The notes: generated from the sequence alone by a model not told the origin. Shown: positions 23 to 28,903, numbered from the stretch's first letter. The stretch is DNA of 64,000 nt from Candidatus Omnitrophota bacterium (GCA_903856085.1 CAIOAT010000016.1:8581-72580), one strand, 5' to 3'. Program-made: numbers and translations.

Positions 23-23
23 A

Positions 24-1924: not shown

Positions 1925-1949
1925 TTTAGCTTCTCCTTTTGACGCCTTC

Positions 1950-1994
1950 AGTTTAAATGAAAGCATCCTGGTTAGATGTAAAATTCCTGTAAAC
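1950..1994 (-). promoter_or_regulatory. Pho-box-like direct repeat plus candidate -10 in front of pstS
   Basis: Top strand has TGTAAAA (1977-1983) and TGTAAAC (1988-1994), 11 bp apart. On the gene strand this reads GTTTACA-N4-TTTTACA. A candidate -10, TAAACT (1950-1955), lies 21 nt downstream. The element sits between the porin stop (1997) and pstS. Confidence 0.5.
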
Positions 1995-1996
1995 TC

Positions 1997-3583: not shown

Positions 3584-3655
3584 AAGATTGGATCTCCTCC
3601 GGTTGAATGGGAATGGGGCAGAATTCTTTTCTGTCCGTTTGATTTTCATGCCGGA

Positions 3656-11455: not shown

Positions 11456-11467
11456 AGTTTTGAAACT

Positions 11468-13030: not shown

Positions 13031-13038
13031 GCTGTTCC

Positions 13039-14031
13039 CTACTTTTTGGCCGCTTTAAAAACTTCATGGGCCATTTTGGCGGCTCCTAAAATAACCGCAT
13101 TATCCTTCAGTTTGGACGGGACGATTTTCACCACTTTGGCGAGGGGCTTAAGCGCGTAAGCTTCCATCTCACGTCTGACCTCAGGAAGAATGATCTTTCC
13201 CATCGCCTCCATCATTCCTCCTCCCAAGAGGATCAATTCCGGATTCAAAATGTTCACCACATTCGCTAGCGCAACCCCGAGCCACCGGGAACGGCTCCGG
13301 ATCAGCTCCTCTAACGCGATATCCCCCGCTTTGATAGCGCGGGACAAAGCACCGCTGCGGATTTTTTTTACGTTATAACCGATCTCTTCGAGAAGATGCG
13401 GGCACTTCTGCCGCAGCAAGAGGAACCCCGCCTCCGATGCAATAGCATTCCTGCCGACCAAAGCTCCGACTTTTTGGCGCGACGTTTCAAAATCAGAAAA
13501 AGAAGGAAGTGACAGAAATGTCTGGCCGATCTCACCAGCTCCTCCAGAAGCGCCACGGTAAAGATGTCCGTTGATGATGAGCGCCCCGCCGATACCCGTT
13601 CCTAGGAAAACCCCCACGACTTCCCGATAACCCCGCGCTGCGCCGAATTGCTGTTCTCCGAAAAGCCCCGCATTGGCATCGTTTTCAATAAAGACCGGTG
13701 TTTTCAGCTTCGCTTTCAGTTTTTCAGCAAGTGAATAATTCTTAAAAAAAGATACGTTGGAGGAGACTTTGACGATCCCTTTATAGATATCAATGATTCC
13801 AGGACAACCCACACCGATGGTTACAAGATCACTCAGGTCCGACCCGGTTTCTTCCAGAACTTCCTCGATCCCGTCAATGAGCTTGTTGAAAAAGAACCTC
13901 TCGCCGCGATTACCGTCCATCTCAAGTTTGACGGTCTTTTTTAAACTAAATTTCCTGTCAAAAAGACCTATCAGAATCTTGGTCCCGCCCAGATCGATGC
14001 CAAGGATGAACTTCTTTTTCTTGCCCGCCAT
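13039..14031 (-). CDS. ROK-family sugar kinase lacking the zinc CxCGxxGC motif (candidate glucokinase, possibly polyphosphate-dependent)
   Basis: Motifs GIDLGGTKILIG, ENDANAGLFGE and GTGIGGALIING. The only cysteines are in GVGCPG and RQKCPH, so the usual ROK zinc motif is absent. SD GGGGAGAG precedes ATG 14031. The track start at 14061 falls inside the predicted -10. Confidence 0.75.
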   Translation of the reverse strand: MAGKKKKFILGIDLGGTKILIGLFDRKFSLKKTVKLEMDGNRGERFFFNKLIDGIEEVLEETGSDLSDLVTIGVGCPGIIDIYKGIVKVSSNVSFFKNYSLAEKLKAKLKTPVFIENDANAGLFGEQQFGAARGYREVVGVFLGTGIGGALIINGHLYRGASGGAGEIGQTFLSLPSFSDFETSRQKVGALVGRNAIASEAGFLLLRQKCPHLLEEIGYNVKKIRSGALSRAIKAGDIALEELIRSRSRWLGVALANVVNILNPELILLGGGMMEAMGKIILPEVRREMEAYALKPLAKVVKIVPSKLKDNAVILGAAKMAHEVFKAAKK

Positions 14032-14059
14032 AGACTCTCCCCTTTCAAAATTGATTTCC

Positions 14060-14103
14060 ATTATAATGGCTCAGGGAAGTTTTTATGTAAAGCATTTGTA
14101 AAG
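14060..14103 (-). promoter_or_regulatory. Pho-box-like repeat plus consensus -10 for the ROK-ppx-ppk1 operon
   Basis: Top strand has TGTAAAG (14086-14092) and TGTAAAG (14097-14103), exactly 11 bp apart. On the gene strand this reads CTTTACA-AATG-CTTTACA. TATAAT (14065-14060) lies 20 nt downstream, and ATG 14031 follows about 29 nt later. Confidence 0.6.
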
Positions 14104-14279: not shown

Positions 14280-17200
14280 TTATGCCGCTACTTTAACAGC
14301 CTTTGCATTTCTCCAGGAAGCAGCAAGGAACTCTGTGACAAGCATCAAGGCATCTTTCATGCCCCAAAGATCCCGTTTTCTTCCTAGCTCAAAAAGTTGC
14401 CGACTTGTGACAAGATACCAGAGAAGAGAAAAAAGAACCTCCGGGTCAGAGCTCTTCAACTCCTTATCGTAATAAACAAGATTCCCAACGCAACTCTTCA
14501 CCTTTTGGACTTCGCGGCGATCGATTCCGACATAAGCATAATCCAAGCGTTGATATTGAGGTCCGGTGACTAAGGGACGCAGGAATTTCAAAATGGAAGC
14601 ACTAATGCTATCAGATATCTCTACTAGCTGAAAATGTCCGGTAGGAAGCTCCATTTTCTTTATCTTTTGTTCGATTGCCTCTTTCCCGGGAAATCGACTC
14701 CTCTCGAACAGGATAATGACACGGAACGGCAGCCGCGAAAGCAGCAAAAGATGCTCATCGCGAATTCCGATCCTCGCGTCCAGGAAAAGGGTGTTCAAGG
14801 CATTGGCCCGCTGCGGAAGAGCGCGGAACATTCCCATTCCTTTTTGGAAGGCTAAAAAATCGTCCCCTGATAGCGCTAAAAGCTCCTTCAGATCCGGTCC
14901 TGTGCTTTCTGAAAGAAAACTCGCGTCACCCAAAAGAGATTTTAAGCGCGGTAAAAGTTTTACATCCTCCGGTCCTAGGATCCATTCCGTGATCTTGATG
15001 GCAACCAGAAGACGGACTTTCTCCGAAACAACCGGCGTCACGTCTTCTTGCAAGGAAATCTCACGCGTAACCTCTTTGGGATTGAGTTCTAACGCTGGGG
15101 GTTTTTCGGAAGTTCTGTCTTCTCTCAATTCGGAACGCAGCACCCCACCAGGGCCCACAGCAGCCAACGCGGTTGCAATCGCCGAAAAGTGCGTCGTTAG
15201 AATCTTGTAAGTACGCGGCGTAAAGACACCTCGTTTTTCACGCAACATCGTAGAAACATCCTCGGGGGAGAGGGCCACGATCTCAACGGCATCATCTCCC
15301 GGTCTAAATTCTTTCCAATTGAACTCTCCATTGAGCGAAAAATGAAACAACTTTACATCCTCTTTTCTTGTGGTGGGAACTTGCCTTCGCCCCTCATGAT
15401 GAACTTCATAGGAAAGAGGAGGGAGCTCCCGAACTGGTAATGAGGTTAAGGCCGCGGGAAGAGGGCGGCCATCACGGAGTTCTTCAAGGAACCCCCTCTG
15501 GATTGCGGCTTCCGGACTTTCTCCGGGCTCCAGATGCTCAAAAACGGGAAGATCCAATAGACCCGGATTACTGGAAGTTAAATTACTGCGCCGCTGAAAA
15601 ACAACTTTTCCATCCTTGGTCACAAATGCGGCAACCTTTAAGGCCGCCAGACCTCTTGCATGCCCCTGTTTTCTTGGCAAGTGTACGATTTGATCGCCTC
15701 GCGTATCACGAAACATAAAAATCTGCCGATCCGCGAGCAATGAACCTTCCCCCTCCAATCGCTCGACGGCTGTACGGTTCGCCAGCTCCGGAAAAGATAC
15801 CTCGAGGCGCTTCATCCGCTCCAAAATCCCAGCCCGATTGCTCCCAGATATAAAAAAATGATCGGAAGGCGCCGGAACAAAAGCCTCCACTTCAGGAGGC
15901 TTCTGCGCAGTCGCACGAAAGGTCTCCCACAGTTTTTTCCCCATCGTGCTATAAATCTTCGCATATGGATTGGCGGCATCTTGTCCATCCGAAAACGTTT
16001 TTTGATTATGAGCGAGCCTCTGAAGATTAGGCGACACCGAAGTATTCCCTCGAAGCTGAAGATCGAACTCAGCAACCACTCTCGCAAAATCCTCTACGAG
16101 ATCCACCACAAAAGCTCCATATTTTGAGATCAAGCTTTCTGTTTTTTTACGAAATACGTCTATCAATCCTTCCATCTGTTGACGTTCCTCCTCCGTCCTT
16201 GAAACAAGAGCCATGGGCCCTTTGGGAACTGCAAATTGAGGCGTGATCGCATTATCCAATGTCAGACCGGTCCCGAACAAATGCCCATACTGACCTAAGG
16301 CACCTTTCAATTCTTCTGGGCGACGAACCACATGCTCCACATCATGCCTCGGAGAACCGTTACGCCCCAACAACACGGGATGCCGATCTGTTTCAACTTC
16401 TTCCAGAGAAGCAAGCCGTGCGTCAATAACGATCTGACTTCCCTGGTTGTTATAGCTGATCACATTCGAGCTCAGGTCGCCTCCAGGGAAAATGATCTCT
16501 CCATGCTTCACGCCTTGCTCCCTGAAGTCGCCTGCCATCCGCAAAGCTTCGGCAAGATTCATCTTAAAGACCGCCATAGCAACCGCCAAAGGAATACCTG
16601 GCTGCGGGAACCAATAGATCTGTAATTTTTTACCCAACGACTCCGCCAGATCGCGAGCGGCAAAAAATTGTCCGGCATTCCCCGGGAAAAGGCCGTCGGA
16701 TTCCGCTACTTTGAAACGGAAATGTTTCAGAACATGATCCTGCGCTACCATTGTTTCAAAAAAATTCCGATTCTCTCCGTTTTTAGGCGGGAGCAAAATG
16801 ATCACCTCGACGTCCTCCCTCAAATTTTCATCCAAAAGCGCCCGGCTCATCTTTGCCATCATAAGATTTTCTCCGGCGACATCGTCCATCTGGGAAAGGG
16901 CAACTTCCCTCCTGGGTTCTGAGGCCGGTCGTGACATTTCATATTGTTTGTTTCTCATACGTTTCGCGGACGCCCGTAAGGATTGGATCTCACGTTTGAA
17001 AGTCCCGTAACCATTTCCACTAAGATTCCTCAACATCGGCCCCACATGCCTCCAAACTGAGAAAAGGGTCCACAAAACACCAAAGATTGTCGGAACTGTA
17101 ATCAACAACTGGTGCAAACCAAATATAAGGTTCAGGATGGGTACAATAAAAAGAATCGCCACTCCGGCCACCGCCAATGCCCGGCCAAGCCATCGTCCAT

Positions 17201-20200
17201 AAAAATGGTCTAGCTTGTTTCCTTCCAGCTCATCAAGTTCGGCTGTGGGATGGAACGCTTTATGGAGTCCTGCTTTTGCCACGCGCATGGCCTCACGTTC
17301 ATTTTCAAATCCGGATATTCCCAGTTTTTGCATATTGGCCGTCACGCGTCTAAAGCTGTTCAGCGTCACCCACCGATTGATCGCCACCATCAGCGTCACC
17401 CCGAGGCAAAGACGCCATATGGAAAAGGTCCAGAGAACCTTCCGATTGTGCAGGATCTTCTGCCAATCCGAGAACTTCATTCCGTCTTGAAGCAATAACT
17501 TGGGAGGATAAAGATCGATTACCTGGGAAAGGGCAATGAGCCGATTCGACAGATTGAATCCTTCATTAAAATTCTCTGCAAAATCGGCTGATTTTTCAAG
17601 AAACCTCAAAACCTCCTGCTCTTCGATATCATTCCCAGTCCCCCGAGTCGCCTGAAATTGACGGGAAGCCGTCTGAGCGGTCAGGATCGATAAGCGGGCC
17701 AAAATCCCACGGATCTTGACCAGAGAATGCGTGTCGGGTTTCCACATTTCAGAAAGGTCCTCAAAATGTTCCCGGGAAAATCTAAGCAGCGGATGCTGCG
17801 CCAACTCGCTGGCCTTTGTGGTGATCATATCCCTTTCGCCCGAACCCAAGTGCTCATTTTCTAAAAGAAGTCGAGTCCAAGCCTGAAGCGGCTCAACGAT
17901 TTCCTGGAACACCCGCATATCCACGTCATCACCGCGGACCGCTCTTTGTTTATTAGCGTTTCTTTTTAAACGCATCCCGATTTTTCCCGCCTCGTCAAAG
18001 AGAATCTCTAGAGATTCCACGGAATCTCTCCGGAAAAACTTCTCATGCCCTCTTTTTTTCATCAATGCGAAAAAAAGTTTTGGAAGATTCCAGACAAGTA
18101 GAACCAAAGCAAGAACCGGGAAAAAACGCCAACTGATGTAACGAGCCCCAAAAGGGTTCATGAAATACCTCAAGAGAGCCGCTCGCTGCGTGGGATTTTG
18201 TTCTTCCCTTACTAGCTCCAAAAGTCCCAGAACCCCGATCTTTTGTCCGGGATGCATTTGAAATTGTTCCTGAACGGATGCGGGAATCGAATCTATTAAG
18301 CGAAGAGGTGGCGACTTTCTTTCGACAAGATCGCCTTTCTTCTTCGCCCAGGCTGAGGCTTTGGCGGACCCATCGAAAGCAATATCCGCAACACTACCCT
18401 CGCCAAGAATTCCCTCCGTATCGTCGCTGCGGATCACAACTCCCTCCCGTTCACCCAAAAGCCATTGGCTGCTGTTCGCGAGAGGGATCACTGCATACAC
18501 TGTCCCCATCAAAACGCCGCGGGATGTCACGACAGAGACTTTATCTCCTGTTTTAACGCTTCCCGTTTCGACAGGGAGCAGAAAAGGATCCTCATTGGAA
18601 AGACGGCCTGTCCATTCTGCAGAACGGGGGTCAACGCTCGTTCCCAAAAAAACCTCTTTGTTTACAATGCCGGCTTTCGTCACCTGCCCCGCCGCCAACG
18701 TTTGTCCATCTAAAGCAGTAACGCCCAGAACACGACCCCCCACGGGAGCTTTGAGCAGGATGGGCAATCCGCTCCGCTGGATCCCTGCAACGGCCCGCTG
18801 AGCTCTTTTTTCATAGTCCTGGAGAGAGCTTTCGGGAAGAGTCCTAAAGTCCTGGTTCGCCTTACGCATTGTCCGTGCAAGAGTCTCAAGCTGTCTGGCA
18901 ATCTTGAGCTGCCCACCTTGCCCCACAGGGATCCATTCCCCCAAGGAGTCCCCGGCCTTAACCGTTTGTCCATCCCGAACTGTAGCTCGAAAAATTCCGG
19001 CGTCGATCCCGGGAACGGGAGGAACACCGACCGGGATGAACTGTGAAGATGGAATAGTGGTGTGAAATCCGGCATTGTGATGCAATCCTAACGATTCGAC
19101 GCTCGGAGTATTATCTTTTATCAGCTTAATATCATATGCACAACTCGCCCCATGGGCCGGAAGAGATGTGGAAGATGGGAAGCTGAAATGAACTGTTAAA
19201 ATAAATTCGCCGTCCACTCCTTTCGCAAGGTCAAAATGACTTGCTTCCCAATCCAACACATTCACGGAATGCCCATTGACGGAAAGTTCGATATCATCGG
19301 CTCCGGAATATCCCGGAGGAAGAGCAATCTTTATGACCCCCTCATCCAGAGGAACGATCCCCACGGCATAACTACCAGCCGTTGCCGGCCCCTGATCCAG
19401 TGTTTGAACGATTGCCGGGCGGGGCGAAACCAGGATGTCGGCTTCTGCTTCCGCCTTCAGTTGAGCGAGCTCCAGTTGATGTTCGATCCTCTCAAATTGA
19501 TATTGAAATATTGTGTCCCGGTCGAGAGTCCCCGCATCTTTTTCTCCTCTGGCCACCAACCCGCCAAGTTCTCGGATCCTATCTTCCAGAAATTGAGTCC
19601 TGTTATCGCGTTCTGTATCCTCTCCTCTCGCAAGCAGGTCGCCTTTTTTGACAACATCTCCAGGTTTAACGGCATAAGTCATCTTATCTGCCGTCAATGG
19701 GGCTTTGAGCATGACCGCACCGGGAGGATTCACGATTGCTTGTCCTTTGCCTGTATACAAGACAGTTGCTGTGTTTGCGACAGAGTGTTGCTCTTCAAAC
19801 ACTGGTTTGACCTCTGTCCTATCAGAAACAAGGGAGGCTGATGCGACGGAAGACGGCTCTTTCACGGAAGCCTCCTCGTTCGTGACATTCAAAGCATTGG
19901 CAGTCCCGGCTGGGCTTTGAAATGGTATCCCGGAAAAATCTTTCTTCGTGAGTTTCTCCTTTGCGCCTGACGAAGTCATTACCTGTTCTCCTTGAGAAAC
20001 CGCATCGGCCAAGGTTTCGCGCCCATCCACGTTGCCTACACCAAGAATTTCGATGACGGAACTATCCGGAGAGACCGATTGGGGGTTGGATGTCGCATGA
20101 TCGGCTTCAGAAATTTTTGGGCTCTCCGCGGTGGTTGGAAGTGCGGAAGATGGCCCATCCGCAGAAACCCTGTCGGAGAGGACCGATGATGCCGCTGCAA

Positions 20201-23200
20201 CCGGAGAAATATACGCTCTCGATACTTTTGAAGAATGCCCGTTCTCTGGAACGGAAGACGCTCCCTCCAAAGAAACAATTCGGAAATAGCCTTGGTGTTG
20301 GGGCACCACCACGAATGTTGCTTCATAAGGATTCTTGGTTTCCTTGCGTAATGTCCAGATCCCCTTTCTTTCCGTTTTAAGAAATTTCGCACCCTGCAGG
20401 TCTTTTCCTAAAAAAGTCACTGTAGAGGAGGGAACGCCCCGCTGCATTAAAAGCTGCGCTCCTTTCATGTTTTCGGTGATCATTTGTTTGCCCACCAATT
20501 TCTGAATCGCCAATTCATTGGTTTGAGCCAAGGCTGACGAAGCCATGAGAAAAGCCCCCAGCAAAAATCCTCCCATTATTTTTAACAAGAAATGGATTCC
20601 CAGCTTTCGGCGAACTTCTGAACGCTGTGGTGCAATTCCTAGCCCGAAGAAATTTGCCCCGGTGATAACATTCAAAGGTTCTACCCACGTTTCGGATGCG
20701 CGCAGATCTGTAAAACCCTTCGTAGTCCATACTTTTTCGGATACAACTTGAGCATTCAACCAATCTCTTAGTTCGTCCGGGATAGTTTTTGATCCCACCA
20801 GTCTCCACGAGAAAACCTTCCGGGAAAAACCTAAGACGATTTGGATATCAGCAATGGGTGGGGCGTTTTGATTCGTCTTCACGTGAAATAGGGTGCCATT
20901 TATGCCAAGCTTGTGCCCTCGTCTTAAAAATCCCTGCAATTCTGGAGACATCTCCAAAACAATTTTGCCAAGATCAACCCTGTAAACCAACCCCGCAACC
21001 TTTGTCTCTGGCCCAAAAGCTTCAATGTGCTTCGCCGAAAGAGAGGCTGCGCTCCGCATTTCGAATCTTGTCACACCCTTCTTGAAAGACCGATAAGCCT
21101 GCATCAAAAGGCCTGCGGCGATTGCTGACGCTTCCTCTTTTTCTTCAGCCCTTAGCTTTGATTCCCGCGTGTTCAATTCGATATATTCACGAATTCGAAC
21201 GTTAAGTCCAGATAGCGCAGAGGAGGTAAAATTCATCTCGAAAGATTCGATCGCTTTAGCGGCTAGCGCGTAAGGAACCAAGGTATCCGGCAGATCCTTG
21301 GCCTGTCCAAGATCGTTTCTAACCGATTCCAAATCGGCAAAAGTAACCCCGCCATTCCGTTCTTTTCCATAAATGAGTCCCCACGCAAGCGCCCAAGCCG
21401 CCATCGCCTGCTCAGCAGGGATTCGAATGGCCCCCTTAGCCGACGTCATAAGCTCGAGTGACACGGCGAGCATAGACGTCGGGATCATTGCATCCGCATC
21501 ATCCAACAACCCGCCATCGATCAAGCTCACGATCGCATGATGGGCAAGAGCACGCACGGTTCCGCAATCACTGAGATTAAGTTGCAAAAGCACTTCTGCA
21601 CGCTTCAAAGCTTCCCCAAGGATTTCCTTATTCATAACGGGATCAAGATAATTTGAACGCGCCTCCGAACGAACGACGATTTGCGCTTTCACCGATCCCG
21701 GTTCAGAACGGCCAGACGCTGCCTTTTCGCGAGAAAACCGATGGCGAGAGAGTTTCGAATCAACATTGGAACGCCGAAAGGCCTCTGAAATCAAAACACC
21801 CAGATGAATTTTTTTAATCATTTTCAAAGCCACCCAGGAAAAGGCAATATCCCCCGTAAGGATGACGAGCTCTGAAAGGTAGGGGCTTACAAGCTTGTTG
21901 ATAATCATCGCCATCCCCTCAACAGGAAGGAACCATAACAACAATTGACGGCGACTCTCCTTAAAAGATCCGTGGCTTTTGAAGAGTCGTAGAGATTCGA
22001 AGTTATTTTCAGGATAGATGTTTGTATAATATTTCCAGAGCATAAGTGGATAAAAAATATAAAAATTGATCAAAGCATCCCCCATGGTTTTAAGGACGAT
22101 CTCAGACCACACATCAAGCCATGGGGAAAGATTTAATTTCCCGATTAAGGCATAATAAACGGTAAAAAATAAAGCGAACAAGCTAGCTGGAGCTGCGGCT
22201 TTCCTGGAGTCTTTCCAGAATGTTTTCATGAACACTCCTCGAAAGCCATGGCGAAGATAATCCTGCATCCAGACACAATATGCCGCAATCATGCCAGCCC
22301 AGGCGATACTCACGCCAAGTGAAAGAACTAAAGAATGCCATGACGCGTTCTGAAGATGCGGTTTAAGGATAAACGCCAGCCCCAGAGTGGCGGCTGAAAA
22401 TCCAGCTGTCCCCATCGCGGCAGGTGTGATTTGTTTGAGATGAGCGAGTTTGGATCTCTGGTTCCTTATTTCGGACCGGCCGAGCAAGACTTGGGGCAAT
22501 CCCTTTACGTCCCGAGTAAGCACTTGCAGCTCTTTGGCTGCCAATGTGGCCGCCTTGCGAGAGAATAGGATTTGGATCTGATTACTGGGGATCTTTAAAG
22601 CGTCCACAATAAGCCGGTCCTCGGTAACGCCAGCCCCACGAGCCTTTTTCAGATAGCCATCAATCCTTGCATTCTCGGCCTCCGCAATCCGTATCGTCTC
22701 ATTTTCAGCCACAATCGTTTGAAGAAGACCTGCAATCTTCTCTTCGATTTTGTCATGAACTGTCAAGAGCTCGGCTTCCGCTACACGAGTCTCCAGAAGA
22801 GCTATTTCCCGATTGGCTCGCTCAGCGCCCCCGAAAGTCACCTTCCCGCCGAGACCTACGGCCTGCTGATCCTCCGTGCGTTGTTTTGCCTCCGGAACAA
22901 CTCTTGTATTGAACACATCCGGAACTTTTGTCCCATAGGAATCGAAATAGTTGAATCCCTTAAGACCGATCGAGTAACCGTTCTCTCTTGCAGCCAATCT
23001 CGCGGCCGTTGCGGCAGTCAAACGGGCCTCATAAGCCAACGCAAGTTCACGGTTTGCCGGAAGTTTGACGCCTTCTTTGGAGGTTGCTTTAAGACCAAGC
23101 GCTATTCGTTGATCGGTTGTGATCGTCCACCCTTCCGGAAATCGCACATAATTCAAGGCATTGGAAAAAGTCGCACATCCTAAGATGTTTTGGCCATAGA

Positions 23201-25985
23201 GTGTCCTCAAAGGCAATGCCGCCTTCTCCAACTTGGAACGATGCTCATTAAGACGTAAAAGCCACTCCGCCTTAAGATCTCCGATCGCCTGGCGTTTTGC
23301 GGCTGTTGACTGCGAGTTCTTGCCGGCGACTTCGCTAGCATGATCGATCGCCTCAAGGGCTGCTTCAATAATTGGGCCTTGTGATTCAAGCGTTTTCATT
23401 TCGTAGGCGGCCCCCAAGAAATCGAGGTATCGTTCACCCGCCACCTGCTGAAGTTCCAGTCCGGCTGTTTCAACCATCTGCTGCGCCAGTTCTCGCGCCA
23501 GGATATCCTGACCTTTCCAGTATTTGCTAATCTCCGCTGCAAGGGATAACACCGCACTGGCCGCCGAATCCAAACCGATCCCCGTTAATTGTATCTGCCC
23601 AAGATTCGGCAAAGTTCCTTCGACGCCAAGCCCAAGCACCGGTTTCCCATCTGCGAGACCTAGGGTAGGCATGAGAGAAATGCTCCCGGACAAACTTCTT
23701 TTTTTGGATTCCCGGATACTCACCTCAAAACGGTGTCTCAGAATGACCGGATCGCGAGTAACCAATGCTTCAGCCAGGGAGCTTTCATTCACCAGAATCG
23801 GACCGGACAGAGAAATTTCTTTTTGCGGCAAAATGTACTGACGATCCGATTCGATCTGTTGTCTCGCATGGTCACGGCCCAAATTCGCACAACCGCTGAG
23901 AATGCCTGCCATTACAACCCAAAGAACCGCCTTCATGAACGAGGAGGGCTTCCATCGGATCTCGGCGCGCGAGAACAAATTGTTTTTTCCCTGGATCGCG
24001 TCGGGGAGCAATGCCAAAAGTCCCTTCTCCGCCCCGGGAGATAGCAAGGGAGTCGGATCTAAAATGAATCCGACATGGGTATTCATTCTCTGAAATAAGA
24101 AGCTCAAAACGTGTTGCTCTAATGCTTGACGAACTTCATGCATCCCTTTGTAAAATTTCTCCGGAATGGCTGCGAATATCCGTTGTCCCTCCCCATCCAT
24201 GAATGCCGACTTTCCCGTCTGGGATCTTTGGGCCAACACGCTGTGTTCTCCCTCGGAAACATCGACCACCGCCACTTGATGTTTTTTAAGTGATCTTTCG
24301 ATCTGTCCCATAGCCGCTTCAAAATGGTCAAATGCTGGCTCTCCGACCATCTGCCTCGCCTCGGAGTGTTCCATCACGGGGAGCTGCGCGGGAGCGATCG
24401 TAGACGTCCCGGGATACCGCCCCATCAAGAGATCACTATAGGGAAGCATCTTTTCTTCCGGGTTGAAATACGGCGTCACAAGATTGAACGGTATCCCAAG
24501 CGCTTCTGTTCGCCTGAGTAGTCCTTCCTTATGGTAGCCTCCGGCAACAATCACAATGTTTCTGGTTTTATTCCCCTGTCCATTCAAAAAAAGAGGATCT
24601 TGAATCCTTTTTTTGATGATATCAAAAAAAACATCTTCGCGAGCTTCTGCCTGAGCATAAAAATCCAAAACAAGGTCGACAAGGGGCGCTATCGTCTCTT
24701 CGTGAGGGAGTGATGGCTCCCGGAGAAAGCGCTTGTAAGCCTGCACCCAGTTCTTGCGAAAATGGTCGCGAAACCGGGCCACGCACTCCCTTTTAAGTTC
24801 AAGGGAAAGCGCCTGTTTCAGGAGGAAAAAATCCTGGTAAAAGGCAAGCCATCGTCCAGCTACCGGATCACTGCGACGGAGGGTCTCATACAACCTGTTC
24901 TCGAGCGTCTGGATTTCGTCAAAAAGTCTTTCGGCTATAAGTTCGCTTTCAAATACCTGCAAAGCAAGAAACTTCCGAATCATCGGATAACGTCCCCAAG
25001 AAAGCTCCCGTGCCAAAAATTTCTCCATGATGCGTTCCGCCATAACGCGAGAAGTCACGCTTCCAGTCTGAAGTGCGCGTGACCGGAAAGTTGCATTCGA
25101 AGCGGCGCTCTCGAGCCATTCGATTTCCGATCGAGAATCCGGACCAAGCACCCGTTTAAGCTGTCCGATTTCTTTCGTGACTGCGCTACAATCCGGTGCT
25201 GTTTCCGTATTCAAAACACGGAAAAACCGAACTAGCTGAGGCCAATCTTTTTGCGTCGAAAGATCCCGCCAATCGATTCCCAAATGCTTCGAAGAGCAAT
25301 CAAAAAGAAACTTCATGTACTCGCTTAAATCATTTTGGCTTTCCTGATGAGATCTCCACATTTTCAAGAAATGGAATACCTGCGGATCAATAACTTTTTT
25401 GATATCTTGAATTAATGATGCCTCCACCTGATCAAGAAACTCTCGAATCTCACCATGGTTGCGCATAACGGCCCGGTAAGTTTCGAGGTTCTTTCGGTAA
25501 AGCCCTGCCTCCTCAATCCCGTACACGCGTATGCCGGAGTGATTTGCAAAGAATTGAGTGGCGCCATTAACGAATCCCGCTTGGAAAAGGCTTCCCAAAA
25601 AGATCCTGTTCTTTTCATCATCCTGGAAAGGCTTCAGAGCCTCGGGAGACAGAGGGCCTGATGCACCTTCAATAAAAAGCATATCGAGTTTCTTTTGCTC
25701 TAGAAGGGACTCTAGTATCTTCGTAATATTCTTTTGAGCCTCTTCCGAAGCATGCGCATCTTGGATATGGTAGAAACTGAAAGGCACGGACCTTTCCGGG
25801 GGCGGGGACTTTTCAAGGCTTCCTACTTTGGGGGATAAAAAAACGGGGGCTTCGGCAACAGCGCCGGTATAAAAATATGCCGTCACAGCACGCACTTCTT
25901 GGGAAGGAAAAATGGTTTCAAAAACAAAAATGGCCACAACAGCAAATGCTACGATCCGGATCAATTTGCTTTTCTTGGCTTTCAT
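14280..25985 (-). CDS. Giant multi-module envelope protein or polyprotein (3,901 aa from ATG 25985; the frame is open from TTG 26015 = 3,911 aa)
   Basis: A single uninterrupted frame of 11.7 kb. The N-terminus is MKAKKSKLIRIVAFAVVAIFVFETIFPSQEVRA (signal anchor). The modules are listed as separate features below. Confidence 0.8.
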   Translation of the reverse strand: MKAKKSKLIRIVAFAVVAIFVFETIFPSQEVRAVTAYFYTGAVAEAPVFLSPKVGSLEKSPPPERSVPFSFYHIQDAHASEEAQKNITKILESLLEQKKLDMLFIEGASGPLSPEALKPFQDDEKNRIFLGSLFQAGFVNGATQFFANHSGIRVYGIEEAGLYRKNLETYRAVMRNHGEIREFLDQVEASLIQDIKKVIDPQVFHFLKMWRSHQESQNDLSEYMKFLFDCSSKHLGIDWRDLSTQKDWPQLVRFFRVLNTETAPDCSAVTKEIGQLKRVLGPDSRSEIEWLESAASNATFRSRALQTGSVTSRVMAERIMEKFLARELSWGRYPMIRKFLALQVFESELIAERLFDEIQTLENRLYETLRRSDPVAGRWLAFYQDFFLLKQALSLELKRECVARFRDHFRKNWVQAYKRFLREPSLPHEETIAPLVDLVLDFYAQAEAREDVFFDIIKKRIQDPLFLNGQGNKTRNIVIVAGGYHKEGLLRRTEALGIPFNLVTPYFNPEEKMLPYSDLLMGRYPGTSTIAPAQLPVMEHSEARQMVGEPAFDHFEAAMGQIERSLKKHQVAVVDVSEGEHSVLAQRSQTGKSAFMDGEGQRIFAAIPEKFYKGMHEVRQALEQHVLSFLFQRMNTHVGFILDPTPLLSPGAEKGLLALLPDAIQGKNNLFSRAEIRWKPSSFMKAVLWVVMAGILSGCANLGRDHARQQIESDRQYILPQKEISLSGPILVNESSLAEALVTRDPVILRHRFEVSIRESKKRSLSGSISLMPTLGLADGKPVLGLGVEGTLPNLGQIQLTGIGLDSAASAVLSLAAEISKYWKGQDILARELAQQMVETAGLELQQVAGERYLDFLGAAYEMKTLESQGPIIEAALEAIDHASEVAGKNSQSTAAKRQAIGDLKAEWLLRLNEHRSKLEKAALPLRTLYGQNILGCATFSNALNYVRFPEGWTITTDQRIALGLKATSKEGVKLPANRELALAYEARLTAATAARLAARENGYSIGLKGFNYFDSYGTKVPDVFNTRVVPEAKQRTEDQQAVGLGGKVTFGGAERANREIALLETRVAEAELLTVHDKIEEKIAGLLQTIVAENETIRIAEAENARIDGYLKKARGAGVTEDRLIVDALKIPSNQIQILFSRKAATLAAKELQVLTRDVKGLPQVLLGRSEIRNQRSKLAHLKQITPAAMGTAGFSAATLGLAFILKPHLQNASWHSLVLSLGVSIAWAGMIAAYCVWMQDYLRHGFRGVFMKTFWKDSRKAAAPASLFALFFTVYYALIGKLNLSPWLDVWSEIVLKTMGDALINFYIFYPLMLWKYYTNIYPENNFESLRLFKSHGSFKESRRQLLLWFLPVEGMAMIINKLVSPYLSELVILTGDIAFSWVALKMIKKIHLGVLISEAFRRSNVDSKLSRHRFSREKAASGRSEPGSVKAQIVVRSEARSNYLDPVMNKEILGEALKRAEVLLQLNLSDCGTVRALAHHAIVSLIDGGLLDDADAMIPTSMLAVSLELMTSAKGAIRIPAEQAMAAWALAWGLIYGKERNGGVTFADLESVRNDLGQAKDLPDTLVPYALAAKAIESFEMNFTSSALSGLNVRIREYIELNTRESKLRAEEKEEASAIAAGLLMQAYRSFKKGVTRFEMRSAASLSAKHIEAFGPETKVAGLVYRVDLGKIVLEMSPELQGFLRRGHKLGINGTLFHVKTNQNAPPIADIQIVLGFSRKVFSWRLVGSKTIPDELRDWLNAQVVSEKVWTTKGFTDLRASETWVEPLNVITGANFFGLGIAPQRSEVRRKLGIHFLLKIMGGFLLGAFLMASSALAQTNELAIQKLVGKQMITENMKGAQLLMQRGVPSSTVTFLGKDLQGAKFLKTERKGIWTLRKETKNPYEATFVVVPQHQGYFRIVSLEGASSVPENGHSSKVSRAYISPVAAASSVLSDRVSADGPSSALPTTAESPKISEADHATSNPQSVSPDSSVIEILGVGNVDGRETLADAVSQGEQVMTSSGAKEKLTKKDFSGIPFQSPAGTANALNVTNEEASVKEPSSVASASLVSDRTEVKPVFEEQHSVANTATVLYTGKGQAIVNPPGAVMLKAPLTADKMTYAVKPGDVVKKGDLLARGEDTERDNRTQFLEDRIRELGGLVARGEKDAGTLDRDTIFQYQFERIEHQLELAQLKAEAEADILVSPRPAIVQTLDQGPATAGSYAVGIVPLDEGVIKIALPPGYSGADDIELSVNGHSVNVLDWEASHFDLAKGVDGEFILTVHFSFPSSTSLPAHGASCAYDIKLIKDNTPSVESLGLHHNAGFHTTIPSSQFIPVGVPPVPGIDAGIFRATVRDGQTVKAGDSLGEWIPVGQGGQLKIARQLETLARTMRKANQDFRTLPESSLQDYEKRAQRAVAGIQRSGLPILLKAPVGGRVLGVTALDGQTLAAGQVTKAGIVNKEVFLGTSVDPRSAEWTGRLSNEDPFLLPVETGSVKTGDKVSVVTSRGVLMGTVYAVIPLANSSQWLLGEREGVVIRSDDTEGILGEGSVADIAFDGSAKASAWAKKKGDLVERKSPPLRLIDSIPASVQEQFQMHPGQKIGVLGLLELVREEQNPTQRAALLRYFMNPFGARYISWRFFPVLALVLLVWNLPKLFFALMKKRGHEKFFRRDSVESLEILFDEAGKIGMRLKRNANKQRAVRGDDVDMRVFQEIVEPLQAWTRLLLENEHLGSGERDMITTKASELAQHPLLRFSREHFEDLSEMWKPDTHSLVKIRGILARLSILTAQTASRQFQATRGTGNDIEEQEVLRFLEKSADFAENFNEGFNLSNRLIALSQVIDLYPPKLLLQDGMKFSDWQKILHNRKVLWTFSIWRLCLGVTLMVAINRWVTLNSFRRVTANMQKLGISGFENEREAMRVAKAGLHKAFHPTAELDELEGNKLDHFYGRWLGRALAVAGVAILFIVPILNLIFGLHQLLITVPTIFGVLWTLFSVWRHVGPMLRNLSGNGYGTFKREIQSLRASAKRMRNKQYEMSRPASEPRREVALSQMDDVAGENLMMAKMSRALLDENLREDVEVIILLPPKNGENRNFFETMVAQDHVLKHFRFKVAESDGLFPGNAGQFFAARDLAESLGKKLQIYWFPQPGIPLAVAMAVFKMNLAEALRMAGDFREQGVKHGEIIFPGGDLSSNVISYNNQGSQIVIDARLASLEEVETDRHPVLLGRNGSPRHDVEHVVRRPEELKGALGQYGHLFGTGLTLDNAITPQFAVPKGPMALVSRTEEERQQMEGLIDVFRKKTESLISKYGAFVVDLVEDFARVVAEFDLQLRGNTSVSPNLQRLAHNQKTFSDGQDAANPYAKIYSTMGKKLWETFRATAQKPPEVEAFVPAPSDHFFISGSNRAGILERMKRLEVSFPELANRTAVERLEGEGSLLADRQIFMFRDTRGDQIVHLPRKQGHARGLAALKVAAFVTKDGKVVFQRRSNLTSSNPGLLDLPVFEHLEPGESPEAAIQRGFLEELRDGRPLPAALTSLPVRELPPLSYEVHHEGRRQVPTTRKEDVKLFHFSLNGEFNWKEFRPGDDAVEIVALSPEDVSTMLREKRGVFTPRTYKILTTHFSAIATALAAVGPGGVLRSELREDRTSEKPPALELNPKEVTREISLQEDVTPVVSEKVRLLVAIKITEWILGPEDVKLLPRLKSLLGDASFLSESTGPDLKELLALSGDDFLAFQKGMGMFRALPQRANALNTLFLDARIGIRDEHLLLLSRLPFRVIILFERSRFPGKEAIEQKIKKMELPTGHFQLVEISDSISASILKFLRPLVTGPQYQRLDYAYVGIDRREVQKVKSCVGNLVYYDKELKSSDPEVLFSLLWYLVTSRQLFELGRKRDLWGMKDALMLVTEFLAASWRNAKAVKVAA
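15156..15665 (-). other. Giant ORF Nudix-hydrolase module (aa ~3451-3620) with a variant Nudix box
   Basis: LKVAAFVTKDGKVVFQRR...LDLPVFEHLEPGESPEAAIQRGFLEELR fits GX5EX7REUXEEXGU, except that RE is replaced by RG. The box is at nt 15477-15554. Confidence 0.6.
18336..19763 (-). other. Giant ORF module E (aa ~2085-2560): HlyD/membrane-fusion-protein-like periplasmic adaptor segments
   Basis: Lipoyl-like hairpin motifs YAVKPGDVVKKGDLLARGE and ATVRDGQTVKAGDSLGEW. Coiled-coil stretch FERIEHQLELAQLKAEAEA. Beta-barrel-like segments LKAPVGGRVLGVTALDGQTLAAGQ and VKTGDKVSVVTSRGVLMGTVYAVIP. Confidence 0.5.
19791..20213 (-). other. Ser/Pro/Ala-rich low-complexity linker (aa ~1935-2075)
   Basis: Sequence SPVAAASSVLSDRVSADGPSSALPTTAESPKISEADHATSNPQSVSPDSS...EPSSVASASLVS. 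Confidence 0.6.
20526..20609 (-). other. Internal Sec-type signal peptide (aa 1803-1830: RKLGIHFLLKIMGGFLLGAFLMASSALA|QT)
   Basis: A basic n-region, a hydrophobic core and an A-L-A cleavage motif, starting immediately after RSEVR. Confidence 0.55.
21672..22463 (-). other. Giant ORF module C (aa 1185-1448): roughly six-helix integral membrane module, unknown family
   Basis: Hydrophobic stretches occur near aa 1201-1217, 1226-1249, 1275-1293, 1305-1327, 1356-1376 and 1381-1400. The module is bounded by RSEIR and RSEAR. Confidence 0.5.
22479..23888 (-). other. Giant ORF module B (aa 710-1179): TolC/OEP-like outer-membrane factor
   Basis: About 470 aa, the typical OMF size, with a two-fold internal organisation. 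N-terminal block SLAEALVTRDPVILRHRFEVSIRE...MPTLGL; second half LALAYEARLTAATAARLAARENGYSIGLKG. Long Ala/Glu/Leu-rich helices are present, and a lipobox precedes it as in NodT-type OMFs. Confidence 0.5.
23889..23936 (-). other. Internal lipoprotein-type signal peptide with lipobox (aa 694-709: MKAVLWVVMAGILSG|C)
   Basis: A hydrophobic core is followed by I-L-S-G-C, which matches the L-[AS]-[GA]-C lipobox. The Cys709 codon (tgt) is at 23889-23891. The signal starts 7 residues after RAEIR. Confidence 0.6.
24456..25784 (-). other. Giant ORF module A (aa ~78-520): candidate Tiki/TraB/ChaN-superfamily fold
   Basis: FYHIQDAHASEEAQKNITKILESLLEQKKLDMLFIEGASG resembles the GExH...H...E pattern. The late block RNIVIVAGGYHKEGLLRRTEALGIPF resembles the G..H block of ChaN/TraB proteins. 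This is pattern memory only. Confidence 0.35.
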
Positions 25986-26096
25986 TTTTTGCCCTTTTCC
26001 AATGGTGGAAGACAACTCTTTAAGGTTTTATAAAAGTTTTTCCTTCTGATCTCACGGAAAGCTTAACTTCGTTGTGAAAACTCTGCATCACATCCC

Positions 26097-26439: not shown

Positions 26440-27129
26440 ATGGCAAGCGAAACGATTCTCCTCATTGAAGACGAAAAGAACATCCTTGAGCTTGTGAAAT
26501 ACAACCTCGAGCAGGAGGGTTTTCGCGTCCTCACCGCGACCAAAGGCAACGCAGGTCTTGAGACAGCGCTTAAAGAAAAACCAGCCCTTGTGCTCCTCGA
26601 CCTCATGCTCCCGGAAATCAATGGCCTCGAGATTTGCAAAACCCTAAAACAGACCGAAAAAACACGCAGGATCCCTATCATCATGCTTACGGCCAAAGGC
26701 ACCGAGTCCGATAAAGTCGTCGGCCTCGAACTCGGCGCCGATGATTACATCACCAAACCTTTCAGCCCCCGGGAACTCGTAGCTCGCATCAAAGCCGTCC
26801 TTAGACGCTCTCAGGAAAAAGCCCCGGAAGAGATCTTGAGATCCGGAACGATCGAGCTTGACGTGACAAAGCATGAGCTGCGATTAAAAGGAAAGCCCGC
26901 CGAAATTACCGCCAAAGAATTCGAACTCTTGCGCGTACTCATGAGTTCCAAGGAACGGGTCCTGACGCGCGAGGTTCTCTTATCAAAAGTTTGGGGTTAT
27001 GAGAATTCTGTGAATATCGAAACGCGGACTGTCGACATGCACGTCGGACAGCTACGAAAAAAACTTGGCAAAGAAGCGGATCGGATCGTCACGGTTAAAA
27101 GCGTCGGCTACCGTTTCGACGGAGAATAA
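26440..27129 (+). CDS. phoB: OmpR/PhoB-family response regulator (phosphate regulon regulator)
   Basis: Receiver domain (ILLIEDEKNILELV, LVLLDLMLPE, MLTAKG) plus a winged-helix C-terminus (TRTVDMHVGQLRKKL, VKSVGYRF). It is adjacent to a PhoR-like kinase and to the pst/ppk genes. Confidence 0.8.
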   Translation: MASETILLIEDEKNILELVKYNLEQEGFRVLTATKGNAGLETALKEKPALVLLDLMLPEINGLEICKTLKQTEKTRRIPIIMLTAKGTESDKVVGLELGADDYITKPFSPRELVARIKAVLRRSQEKAPEEILRSGTIELDVTKHELRLKGKPAEITAKEFELLRVLMSSKERVLTREVLLSKVWGYENSVNIETRTVDMHVGQLRKKLGKEADRIVTVKSVGYRFDGE

Positions 27130-27130
27130 G

Positions 27131-28903
27131 ATGGGCTTTCCAAAGATCGGTTTCGCCAAACGTCTCCTCGTGCTGTATGGCATTATTTTCATCCTCGTCC
27201 TGCTCGTAACCGATTGGACGCTTTCTCATTTCCTCCAAAAGCGTGACCTCCAACAGCTTCAGAGCTCTCTTTCGCGTCAGTCGACCCTGATCCGCGAGAT
27301 TGCGACTCCTCTATTAAAGGAGGCTCCCAAGCTCCAATCCAAAGTCAAAAAGCTAGCCGAGGGGACCGATCTTCGCATCACGATCATCGATCCCGAAGGC
27401 GCGATCCTTGCCGATTCCAGTGAAACCAGCGAGGCTCTCGCGAAAATGGACAATCACGCGACCCGGCCCGAGGTTGCGTCCGCACTGAGAAAAGAAACGG
27501 GCATGAGCATCCGTTACAGCATGACTGTTCAGACCAAAATGCTTTATATCGCTATCCCCATCCTGGAACACTCCCAGATCCTAGGGGTCGTTCGCACCGC
27601 GATGCCGATCACACGCGTCGATGAGATCCTGGCCTCGGTCCGCCGACCCGTGATGCTCGCAGCGGTCCTCGGCATTTTGATCGTCCTCGTTGCCGGCATT
27701 CTCTTCGGCGGTCGCCTCACCCAACGCATAGGACGCATCACCTCCGTAGCCGAACGTTATGCCCGCGAGGACTGGTCTGAAAAAATCCTGATGGACGGCC
27801 GCGACGAGCTCAAAATGCTCGCAGATACCATGAATCAAATGGCCACATCCCTGCGCTCAAGGATCGAAGACCTGGAAAGTGAGAAAGGTAAGATTTCCGT
27901 CATTTTGAGCAATATGAACGAAGGGGTGATCGCGATTAGCCGGCGCAAACAGTTTGTTATGGCAAATCCCGCAGCGGAAAAAATCTTTGGATTCACTGCC
28001 GCCCATACGCAGGAGAAAAGTCTGATCGAAATCACACGCCACCCTCAACTCGAAAGGATCGTGGACCACGCCTTCCAGGAGCAAAAAAACGCCTCCTCCG
28101 AAATCCAGATCTCCGGCAAGATAAAAAAGACACTTCTTGCAAATGTGATCGTTCTCGATGCCCACGCCCGCGATATCGGCGGCATCCTTGTTTTTCATGA
28201 CATGACGGAGCTCCGTCGACTCGAGAATATCCGGAAGGAATTCGTAGCCAATGTTTCCCACGAACTCCGCACGCCCCTCACCTCGATTAAGGGATTCATT
28301 GAAACGTTGCTGGGCGGCGCCTTAAAAGATCCCCCGACCAGCGAACGGTTCCTGAAAATTGTTTCGGAGGAGACGGATCGACTCGGAAGGCTGGTGGAAG
28401 ATATTCTGACGCTTGGCGAGATCGAACAGGGCGCGGCTCTGGTCAGGAAAGAAAAGATCGATCTTGCCTCTGAACTCCCGGCCATCCTGGAACGATTTAA
28501 GACCCAGCTCCAAGAAAAAAAGATCGCGGTCGAAAACCGCATCTCCGGGAAACCTCTCCCGCTATCTGGAGACAGGGACAAAGTCCATCAGGTCTTCGTC
28601 AATCTCATCGACAATGCGATCAAATTCAATAAGCCTGAAGGGATGATCGTCCTGTCTGCCGATCAAAGTCCGAAAGGCGTGGTGATTACCATCGAGGATA
28701 CGGGGATCGGTATTCCTGAAGAGTCCCTAGGACGGATTTTTGAGCGGTTCTTTCGTGTGGATAAAGCACGTTCAAAGGAGCTTGGAGGAACCGGATTGGG
28801 CCTAGCCATCGTTAAACACATCATGGAAGCGCATGGCGGCCACGCCACATGCCAAAGCACCCCCGGCCAGGGTTCCCGCTTTTCGGTTTTTTTTCCCGCC
28901 TGA
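27131..28903 (+). CDS. phoR: Sensor histidine kinase, PhoR-like
   Basis: Two TM helices flank a ~150-aa loop. PAS segment NMNEGVIAISRRKQFVMANPAAEKIFG, H-box FVANVSHELRTPLTSIKG, N/G boxes NLIDNAIKFN, DTGIGIP and GGTGLGLAIVKHI. ATG 27131 is separated from the phoB stop by a single nt. The track start at 27065 is rejected. Confidence 0.8.
   Translation: MGFPKIGFAKRLLVLYGIIFILVLLVTDWTLSHFLQKRDLQQLQSSLSRQSTLIREIATPLLKEAPKLQSKVKKLAEGTDLRITIIDPEGAILADSSETSEALAKMDNHATRPEVASALRKETGMSIRYSMTVQTKMLYIAIPILEHSQILGVVRTAMPITRVDEILASVRRPVMLAAVLGILIVLVAGILFGGRLTQRIGRITSVAERYAREDWSEKILMDGRDELKMLADTMNQMATSLRSRIEDLESEKGKISVILSNMNEGVIAISRRKQFVMANPAAEKIFGFTAAHTQEKSLIEITRHPQLERIVDHAFQEQKNASSEIQISGKIKKTLLANVIVLDAHARDIGGILVFHDMTELRRLENIRKEFVANVSHELRTPLTSIKGFIETLLGGALKDPPTSERFLKIVSEETDRLGRLVEDILTLGEIEQGAALVRKEKIDLASELPAILERFKTQLQEKKIAVENRISGKPLPLSGDRDKVHQVFVNLIDNAIKFNKPEGMIVLSADQSPKGVVITIEDTGIGIPEESLGRIFERFFRVDKARSKELGGTGLGLAIVKHIMEAHGGHATCQSTPGQGSRFSVFFPA

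Follow-up and report, generated by a model that had tools for sequence, protein, structure and literature searches.

How can an export signal operate when 1,802 residues of the same polypeptide precede it? This question is raised by a 64,000-nucleotide stretch of DNA from Candidatus Omnitrophota bacterium (GCA_903856085.1 CAIOAT010000016.1:8581-72580), which was analyzed at its full length and is called the window here. An earlier note on this DNA had flagged positions 20526..20624 of the minus strand as an internal Sec-type signal placed directly after the pentapeptide RSEVR and heading a long chain that would link a periplasmic adaptor to a cytoplasmic Nudix domain. The flagged stretch lies inside a single uninterrupted open reading frame (ORF) at 14280..26015 on the minus strand, with 3,911 codons counted from a TTG; the database protein P0001 is the same ORF read from the ATG at 25985 and contains 3,901 residues. 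All residue numbers follow the ORF, as they did in that note. We consider it reasonably probable, judging from the sequence, that the ORF encodes a processed polyprotein of six protein-sized modules that is cut at a recurring R[SA]ExR motif, and that its downstream modules thereby regain N-terminal export signals.

The strict form of the motif is R[SA]E[ILVAMFT]R, written R[SA]ExR for short. It begins at residues 683, 1180, 1449, 1798, and 3627 of the ORF and is absent between these sites. Five copies compare with an expectation of 0.08 from 2,000 shuffles of the protein, in which the maximum was 2, and no copy occurs in the other six-frame ORFs of at least 150 residues in the window. The codons vary among the five copies, and the motif is therefore conserved at the level of the peptide, not of the DNA; on the same ground, a DNA- or RNA-level signal or a reassigned codon behind the motif was rejected. 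Partial copies are also present, namely RSEIE at residue 295 (25119..25133, minus strand) and RSEPG at residue 1436 (21696..21710, minus strand), the latter in the linker of the RSEAR site, 13 residues ahead of it.

The motif is likewise concentrated in the homologues of this protein. The 77 giant proteins obtained in a homologue search, 2,170 to 6,482 residues long, hold 214 copies where shuffles predict 7.9, and 134 further, independent cluster representatives contribute another 287. The flanks resemble linkers, being enriched in A, S, P, and G at positions -1 and -2, and the median spacing between successive copies is 377 residues, the size of an ordinary protein. Recognizable Pfam domains fall one to each inter-motif unit, with their starts a few residues beyond the motif. 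P0012, for instance, devotes one module each to a DUF218 domain, a TrmB-like methyltransferase, and a flavoprotein, with a Rossmann motif about 14 residues after the site, and in P0037, HPr begins 4 residues after it. A hydrophobic 13-mer is found within 50 residues after 11% of the sites, compared with 4.9% of random positions; these stretches mostly start 5 to 17 residues after the motif, which is the length of a signal-peptide n-region, and they are depleted upstream of the sites. Features of this kind characterize processing sites between polyprotein modules. In members that lack R[SA]ExR (P0023, P0027, P0031, P0038, P0059, P0087, P0118, P0120, P0148, P0161, P0162, and P0197), different pentapeptides recur, [AG]ASLG up to 10 times, GARLA 11 times (P0059), and AARLS 5 to 6 times (P0038), which suggests that the alternative pentapeptides are lineage-specific linker or cleavage motifs. 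Many members, namely P0011, P0012, P0017, P0018, P0021, P0037, P0052, and P0064, have no transmembrane (TM)-like segment after the N-terminal signal-like segment, yet carry cytoplasmic-type enzymes.

At the fourth site of the ORF, the linker stretch reads ...GIAPQRSEVRRKLG..., and RSEVR is followed by 28 residues, RKLGIHFLLKIMGGFLLGAFLMASSALA, and then by QT. In a rule-based check, these residues divide into an n-region, RKLGIHFLLK, with a charge of +3, an h-region, IMGGFLLGAFLMA, of 13 uncharged residues, and a c-region, SSALA, and the predicted cut, ALA↓Q, has Ala at -3 and -1 and Gln at +1. By position the stretch does not qualify as a signal peptide, as it starts far inside the ORF and not at the translated N terminus; with so many residues ahead of it, the signal needs a cut at RSEVR to become N-terminal. 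Motif and AXA-type signal stand at the equivalent place in seven of seven colinear homologues (P0002 to P0008) and in three orthologues from Omnitrophota metagenome-assembled genomes (MAGs; L002, L007, and L008). The sites and signal ends are RAEVR 1477 and GAFA↓G in P0002, RSELR 1092 and PSWA↓Q in P0003, RSEIR 1087 and SAQA↓A in P0004, RAEVR 1839 and NVFA↓G in P0005, RSEFR 1357 and SAFA↓G in P0006, RSEVR 1330 and GAFA↓E in P0007, and RSEVR 1403 and VAGA↓S in P0008. While the orthologue signals thus end in AFA, VFA, AGA, AQA, or SWA, their sequences can barely be aligned, indicating that signal-peptide character is what selection keeps. Downstream of the signal, a motif-free chain of 1,800 to 2,200 residues follows in all of these proteins (1,870 to 2,100 residues in the three MAG orthologues). 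In the ORF itself, the strict search found no motif between residue 1803 and RSELR (residues 3627 to 3631). Both observations with which the earlier note began, a Sec-type signal directly after RSEVR and the absence of a further RSExR up to RSELR, therefore stand, and both are kept in the orthologues. Relaxed patterns within residues 1803 to 3627 yield only KTERK (1880), RTEVK (2066), and ASEPR (3031); none is kept in orthologues, and extra degenerate cleavage sites in this part of the chain were rejected.

The chain delimited by RSEVR and RSELR is module 5 (residues 1803 to 3626), and its exported half would contain a periplasmic adaptor, a family also known as membrane fusion proteins (MFPs). 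An AlphaFold2 (AF2) model of residues 2085 to 2665, built with seven homologues, has a pLDDT of 70 and contains two lipoyl-type β-units, each with an α-hairpin, followed by β-barrel parts and a long terminal helix. When the model was compared with PDB structures by Foldseek, the top 50 matches were all periplasmic adaptors (E values of 7e-9 to 1e-5, probability 1.0), including 4l8j, MacA, MexA, AcrA, ZneB, CusB, and EmrA, and the sequence profile of the segment matched MexA in the PDB at an E value of 4e-4. The Pfam scores remain under their thresholds (Biotin_lipoyl_2, 21.4 versus 29.8; HlyD_3, 12 versus 22.2; HlyD_D23 also under), and a PF25917 match is precomputed for one homologue. A trimer of module 5 would present six hairpins, like six separate adaptor protomers in known tripartite pumps.

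Hydropathy and a Hessa-scale scan place TM1 (residues ~2630 to 2652) and the TM3/TM4 hairpin (residues 2947 to 2988) in all full-length orthologues. The segment at residues 2861 to 2879 reaches a dG of ≤2 only in P0001 and P0004 and fails the Hessa-scale insertion test in three of five orthologues. The number of helices decides the topology: four TM helices after a cleaved signal would leave the Nudix domain in the periplasm, the outcome that the earlier note had itself named as contrary to its proposal. The counts of Lys and Arg assign the loops that follow TM1 and TM4 to the inner side, which gives the adaptor outside and the Nudix domain inside. From these hydropathy and charge data, we favor a module 5 with three TM helices, in which the adaptor is predicted to be periplasmic and a 290-residue loop and a 640-residue C-terminal part cytoplasmic. 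The AF2 model of residues 2600 to 3626 (pLDDT 52, pTM 0.32) is too poor for topology or a fold search; within it, the helices at model positions 66 to 234 have pLDDT values of 70 to 87.

The C-terminal part of module 5 is positively charged. Its conserved domain at residues 2989 to 3460 has no Pfam or PDB sequence match and no Walker A motif. The Nudix domain that follows scores 25.6 to 27.8 bits with Pfam NUDIX against a gathering cutoff of 21.1; four of five orthologues match, and Nudix matches in the PDB have E values of 4e-3. The Nudix box reads E-x5-E-x7-R-G-F-L-E-E-L-R against GX5EX7REUXEEXGU, in which the leading G, the E of RE, and the final G are substituted, whereas the box of P0006 is canonical at REFQEE. 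In the ORF studied, the Nudix domain continues the adaptor chain, and RSELR sets module 6 apart. In P0008, by comparison (residues 3327 to 3812, set against ORF residues 3434 to 3898), the Nudix-like region comes after an RSEVR site and shares its module with the module 6 homologue; the covalent link between adaptor and Nudix domain is therefore not universal, and the module boundaries shift between orthologues. Measured against these results, the earlier proposal for module 5 is supported in part. The HlyD-like part adopts the adaptor fold when modeled and compared with MFP structures, and the Nudix domain at the C-terminal end of the chain passes the Pfam gathering score with a degenerate box. 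Three of the four TM helices claimed (2630 to 2652, 2947 to 2965, and 2968 to 2988) are supported, but 2861 to 2879 is marginal. A trans-envelope chain from adaptor to cytoplasmic Nudix domain is favored by the charge distribution around the three helices, but it is not shared by P0008 and would be contradicted by a fourth helix.

Taken together, the proposed route runs as follows. The chain of six modules would be cut at or next to the R-[S/A]-E-x-R linkers. The cut at RSEVR would free the N terminus of module 5, RKLG...SSALA↓Q, which could then act as an ordinary Sec signal and be removed by signal peptidase I (SPase I). About 800 residues, the tandem MFP domain included, would be exported; the chain would then cross the inner membrane three times, by TM1 and by the TM3-TM4 hairpin, and about 640 residues ending in the Nudix-like domain would stay in the cytoplasm. 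Module 5, module 2 (a lipoprotein outer-membrane factor that would be freed after RAEIR), and module 3 probably form an envelope-spanning assembly. Module 2's lipoprotein signal and module 5's Sec signal each require an N-in, C-out orientation, and since an uncleaved chain cannot provide it behind an exported module 1, separation would have to occur on the cytoplasmic side before Sec. The best candidate for the protease is the TIKI/ChaN-like domain that opens every member of the family, and a separate cytoplasmic protease is equally possible.

In this candidate domain, which belongs to module 1, H88, E116, R459, and GG-x-H495 are invariant, and D86 occurs in 89% of 70 sequences, giving the signature D-x-H...E...GGxH. 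Six of 22 members match PF04187 (ChaN, Tiki superfamily), with a best E value of 2.4e-4, and one matches Erythro_esteras. The TIKI superfamily uses a 2His/2Glu set; 28 residues separate His from Glu both in Bcr135 (H85/E113) and in RRSP (H3902/E3930), the latter being a sequence-specific endopeptidase and a TIKI-fold MARTX effector (PMC6254334). The spacing of H88 and E116 is also 28 residues, and the second His lies in GGxH, so that module 1 resembles the TIKI/TraB/PrgY/ChaN/erythromycin-esterase superfamily in its His-Glu pair and in the second His of a GxxH motif. It differs in that its two halves are parted by a helical insertion of ~280 residues, in that all matches lie below curated thresholds, and in its proposed substrate, namely the linkers of the same protein. 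No Pfam or NCBIfam model reaches its cutoff on the N-terminal domain. A near-motif, HSEAR (residues 550 to 554; 24354..24368, minus strand), is located at the end of the TIKI-like domain; the position is kept in orthologues as [RHPA][SPA]EAR-x-M-x-G, with RSEAR in P0004, and it could be an auto-processing or pseudo-substrate site.

Processing at the motif has to be weighed against other explanations of the same locus. The one that survives best, improbable as we judge it to be, involves no endoproteolysis at all: the ORF would encode one giant multi-pass protein, the stretch after RSEVR would be a signal-anchor or TM segment, possibly cut only by signal peptidases, and R[SA]ExR would serve in the linkers as a structural or topogenic element or bind a partner. 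Polytopic proteins routinely contain internal signal-anchors, the arginines of the motif would add to a positive-inside n-region, and in P0006, P0005, and P0002, the h-region has the length and hydrophobicity of a TM helix (dG of -1.4 to 0.9); moreover, SPase I and LspA alone could part modules 2 and 5 from the upstream chain. However, the orientations fail, because an exported module 1 would be followed by a lipoprotein signal that must be N-in. The same motif also parts purely soluble cytoplasmic enzymes in members without a TM segment, and a hydrophobic stretch follows only 11% of the sites, so that a membrane role cannot be general to the motif.

Separation during translation, either by internal initiation on a stop-less operon or by 2A-like peptide-bond skipping at the nascent R[SA]ExR, appears slightly less probable still. 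Across 501 sites, Met is not enriched after the motif, so that the modules do not as a rule retain an ATG of their own, and general internal ATG initiation was rejected for this reason. At some sites, an in-frame Met does stand at a stand-alone start position (MKAVLWVVMAGILSGC after RAEIR, MASVVKK... in P0008, and MGGARRS... in L007); at site 1798, no Shine-Dalgarno-like purine run precedes the candidate starts. It is true that separation must be cytoplasmic or cotranslational for the downstream signals to work, but internal initiation would neither stop read-through nor explain a peptide-level motif with varying codons. Skipping of the 2A type needs about 18 residues ending in NPGP, whereas here only five residues are conserved and none upstream.

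We regard as unlikely, to much the same degree as a translational mechanism, that the polyprotein is exported whole and, like MARTX toxins, is processed outside the producer, be it in the periplasm or inside a host or prey cell, with the machinery of the recipient reading the internal Sec and lipoprotein signals. An N-terminal signal-like segment was counted in 181 of 209 members, many of them without a following stop-transfer segment, but the modules include a TrmB-like methyltransferase and HPr and, in precomputed Pfam lists, sigma-70 domains, PGI, and PGM. The TIKI fold includes a MARTX effector protease (PMC6254334), and Omnitrophota have been proposed to be predators or parasites (10.1101/2023.11.21.568195), but the gene sits among housekeeping genes, and the family also occurs in Elusimicrobiota. 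A precedent is given by the "polyvalent proteins" of phages and plasmids (PMC5512222), but no delivery apparatus was identified at the locus. Finally, although each module resembles a separate gene product, a misassembly, a mis-called fusion of neighboring genes, or a wrong genetic code can be practically dismissed, as the identical 3,901-residue ORF is found on 14 to 18 contigs from independent assemblies (NCBI, JGI, ENA, and Logan) and is therefore not an assembly artifact, colinear orthologues at 31 to 53% identity keep the same junctions, and the junction codons are ordinary, varied sense codons.

Several points weigh against the processed polyprotein itself. The predicted signal peptide follows from rules only, the putative TIKI assignment from sub-threshold Pfam matches and a residue signature, and the profile of module 1 found no match in the PDB. 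The model of the membrane and cytoplasmic half of module 5 is unreliable (pLDDT 52), the Nudix box is incomplete, with RGFLEE for REUxEE (the first Glu of REUxEE replaced), and no energizing transporter is present in the ORF or within ~10 kb. Moreover, the TIKI-like domain is predicted to be exported by the signal of module 1, yet the sites at residues 1449, 1798, and 3627 would have to be cut in the cytoplasm, and so would all sites of the TM-free soluble members. This paradox of compartments could be circumvented if the domain acted before its own export, if a separate cytoplasmic protease did the cutting, or if the whole chain were exported and processed elsewhere.

Table 1. Features of the giant ORF in window coordinates, from the N-terminal to the C-terminal end
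Feature	Position (nt)	Residues	Strand	Basis
Giant ORF, readable as a putative six-module polyprotein	14280..25985 from ATG; upstream TTG at 26015		-	P0001
Module 1, N-terminal signal-like segment and TIKI/ChaN-like hydrolase domain (putative)	23970..25985	11-682	-	Residue signature, Pfam
RAEIR motif, precedes lipoprotein signal	23955..23969	683-687	-	Motif search
Module 2, lipoprotein, outer-membrane-factor-like	22479..23954	Lipobox LSGC, 706-709	-	Pfam OEP, lipobox
RSEIR motif	22464..22478	1180-1184	-	Motif search
Module 3, small polytopic membrane protein, ~4 TM helices, net charge +16	21672..22463	1185-1448	-	Hydropathy, composition
RSEAR motif	21657..21671	1449-1453	-	Motif search
Module 4, soluble 344-residue unit, no signal, no family match	20625..21656		-	Sequence searches
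RSEVR linker motif, fourth of five R[SA]ExR sites	20610..20624	1798-1802	-	Equivalents in P0002-P0008, L002, L007, L008
Sec/SPase I-type signal peptide of module 5, predicted cut ALA↓Q	20526..20609	1803-1830	-	Rules; AXA-type signals in all orthologues
Poorly conserved S/A/V-rich region, predicted periplasmic	19764..20525	1831-2084	-	Gappy alignment; composition
Periplasmic adaptor (MFP/PAP) domain, two tandem lipoyl + α-hairpin units, β-barrel parts	18132..19763	2085-2628	-	AF2, Foldseek, profile
TM1, predicted out to in	18060..18131	2629-2652	-	KD 2.13; K/R 2-3 before, 6 after; kept in orthologues; long terminal helix in model
Helical region, predicted cytoplasmic	17178..18059	2653-2946	-	Includes marginal hydrophobic helix 2861-2879 (17379..17435)
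TM3-TM4 hairpin, loop GLHQ	17052..17177	2947-2988	-	Hydropathy, Hessa-scale scan; K/R 3 before, 0 in loop, high after
Conserved domain, predicted cytoplasmic, LLPPKxGEN...AESDGLFPGNAGQFFAARD...IYWFPQPG	15636..17051	2989-3460	-	Invariant alignment columns
Nudix domain, degenerate box EPGESPEAAIQRGFLEELRD	15225..15635	3461-3597	-	Pfam NUDIX, PDB Nudix matches
RSELR motif, closes module 5	15123..15137	3627-3631	-	Motif search
Module 6, soluble, conserved 280-residue C-terminal unit, unassigned	14283..15122		-	Alignment; 46% identity to end of P0005

The positions of all modules are listed in Table 1. Pfam OEP matches module 2 in four of five orthologues, with a best score of 27.9 bits against a cutoff of 22 and one match above the threshold, and the lipobox is kept in all orthologues. 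An in-frame ATG after RAEIR (23889..23936, minus strand; residues 694 to 709) would give MKAVLWVVMAGILSGC, a complete lipoprotein signal, and Met is found at the same place in several orthologues (MLRRRF..., MNRRRF..., and MKFLLR...); these look like fossil or still-used start codons. As single sequences, modules 2, 4, and 6 have no meaningful match in the PDB. The ORF contains no Walker A motif and no ABC, RND, or MFS domain, and NCBIfam and PADLOC scans of it returned nothing, so that it bears no defense-system signature. The neighbors of the ORF are a divergent OmpR-type two-component system and housekeeping genes. The former comprises an OmpR-type response regulator and a Cache/HAMP/PAS histidine kinase (26440..28903, plus strand), which are possible regulators. 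Directly downstream and in the same orientation (9386..14061, minus strand) lie a ROK-family kinase, a Ppx/GppA phosphatase, and a polyphosphate kinase, the last assigned from sequence only; this polyphosphate/nucleotide cluster adjoins a gene whose longest module ends in a Nudix domain.

The labeled sources of the homologues are Omnitrophota, Auribacterota (one homologue), Elusimicrobia, and Endomicrobiaceae MAGs. Most of them share only the N-terminal ~80 to 570 residues with the query; nine closer homologues (P0002 to P0009 and P0068) match further along, and P0002 to P0008 are colinear over most of their length. Every family member opens with the signal-like segment and the TIKI/ChaN-like domain, and the Pfam sets that follow the shared domain differ widely, including phosphotransferase system (PTS) EI, HPr, glycogen phosphorylase, PGM, PGI, kinases, and sigma-70 domains. 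With a profile built from the N-terminal domain, 9,975 cluster representatives (50% identity) were matched, and 7,092 of these had an E value of ≤1e-30; among the best 150 of the 9,975 matches, the domain starts near residues 10 to 210 of proteins of 540 to 7,376 residues. In species-representative genomes, an alignment-seeded scan of contigs found relatives in Ca. Omnitrophota and Elusimicrobiota MAGs, and a contig scan with a single N-terminal domain sequence found no close relative. The Elusimicrobia MAG OdNE_18-Q3-R46-58_BATAC.493 has at least two loci with the N-terminal domain (L014 and L019), and the family can thus be present in multiple copies per genome.

We found no description of the family in the literature on bacterial, Omnitrophota/Elusimicrobia, or TIKI/TraB polyproteins. 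A preprint on giant genes of Omnitrophota suspects proteolysis and says that information on cleavage points is lacking (10.1101/2023.11.21.568195), and a 2026 preprint on long Omnitrophota proteins is silent on cleavage and motifs. A wider reading, for which the chances seem to us to fall somewhat short of even, is that Omnitrophota, Elusimicrobiota, and related phyla write operon-equivalents as ORFs of 2 to 7 thousand residues, cut at lineage-specific pentapeptides by the N-terminal TIKI-like domain, with buried Sec and lipoprotein signals that work only after the cut, in about 10,000 clusters at 50% identity. It is proposed with equal reserve that such operon-equivalents comprise envelope machines, sugar-metabolism enzymes, PTS components, and even sigma factors; the pentapeptides would, as tentatively, be R[SA]ExR here and [AG]ASLG, GARLA, or AARLS in other lineages. 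An operon-as-polyprotein strategy in cellular bacteria was not described in the literature searched.

Adaptor, outer-membrane factor, and Nudix domain are all known folds, and the known analogues of the arrangement are viral polyproteins, MARTX toxins, and polyvalent proteins; the family-level reading would be considerably more novel if confirmed. Module 5 resembles the periplasmic adaptors AcrA, MexA, MacA, EmrA, HlyD, CusB, and ZneB in its lipoyl/α-hairpin/β-barrel fold, in its predicted export to the periplasm, and in the lipoprotein outer-membrane factor encoded alongside. Unlike them, it has two lipoyl/hairpin units per chain and is fused to ~640 predicted cytoplasmic residues that include the Nudix domain, no ABC, RND, or MFS partner is present here, and its sequence scores lie under the Pfam thresholds. 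Its signal, moreover, looks cleavable and its anchor, of three TM helices, would be C-terminal, whereas known adaptors are anchored by an N-terminal lipid or TM segment.

Viral polyproteins (picornavirus, flavivirus, and nidovirus) offer a parallel for the chain as a whole, with a short motif that recurs between protein-sized units, a protease in the same chain, and membrane-targeting segments directly after the sites; the host signal peptidase, for instance, cleaves internal signal sequences of flaviviruses. Here, in contrast, the gene is cellular and bacterial, its context is chromosomal and housekeeping, and the fold of the candidate protease and the motif are different ones. In MARTX toxins, which carry RTX repeats and use type I secretion, a cysteine protease domain is activated in the eukaryotic cytosol and cuts after Leu. 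The likeness lies in giant size (3,500 to 5,300 residues) and in modules that are freed by an embedded protease cutting in linkers, cleavage being proposed here from the sequence alone, and the effector RRSP is a TIKI-fold endopeptidase (PMC6254334). The candidate protease here is the N-terminal TIKI-like domain, in contrast, and its putative site is R[SA]ExR, while the modules have Sec and lipoprotein signals of the bacterial kind and include enzymes of housekeeping type. The polyvalent proteins of phages and conjugative elements likewise combine 2 to 15 domains in one polypeptide, but they are described from the genomic conflicts of viruses and plasmids (Iyer et al. 2017, PMC5512222); here, no mobile-element context was found, and envelope machinery with export signals is among the modules. 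The giant Omnitrophota proteins ("Archaeovorins" and dockerin-type proteins; West-Roberts et al. 2023) come from the same phylum and share very long ORFs with TM segments and a suspected post-translational cleavage. They exceed 30,000 residues and have C39 or S8 peptidase and SecA-like domains, whereas the present family spans 2 to 7 thousand residues and has a TIKI-like N-terminal domain and an explicit recurring motif.

If the motifs are real processing sites, they would supply explicit cleavage points for giant proteins of the Omnitrophota type, which the 2023 preprint says are missing. They would also mean that ordinary cellular machinery is expressed as a polyprotein in bacteria, and that proteolysis unmasks internal Sec and lipoprotein signals, a logic so far tied to viruses and a few toxins. 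The N-terminal domain occurs in about 10,000 cluster representatives, yet it has no model at its cutoff, and many metagenomic "hypothetical giant proteins" could therefore be annotated module by module. For module 5, the prediction is an unusual envelope-spanning design, a tandem adaptor fused through the membrane to a large Nudix-fold cytoplasmic domain, with its own outer-membrane factor and no recognizable pump, which suggests a non-canonical conduit or signaling device.

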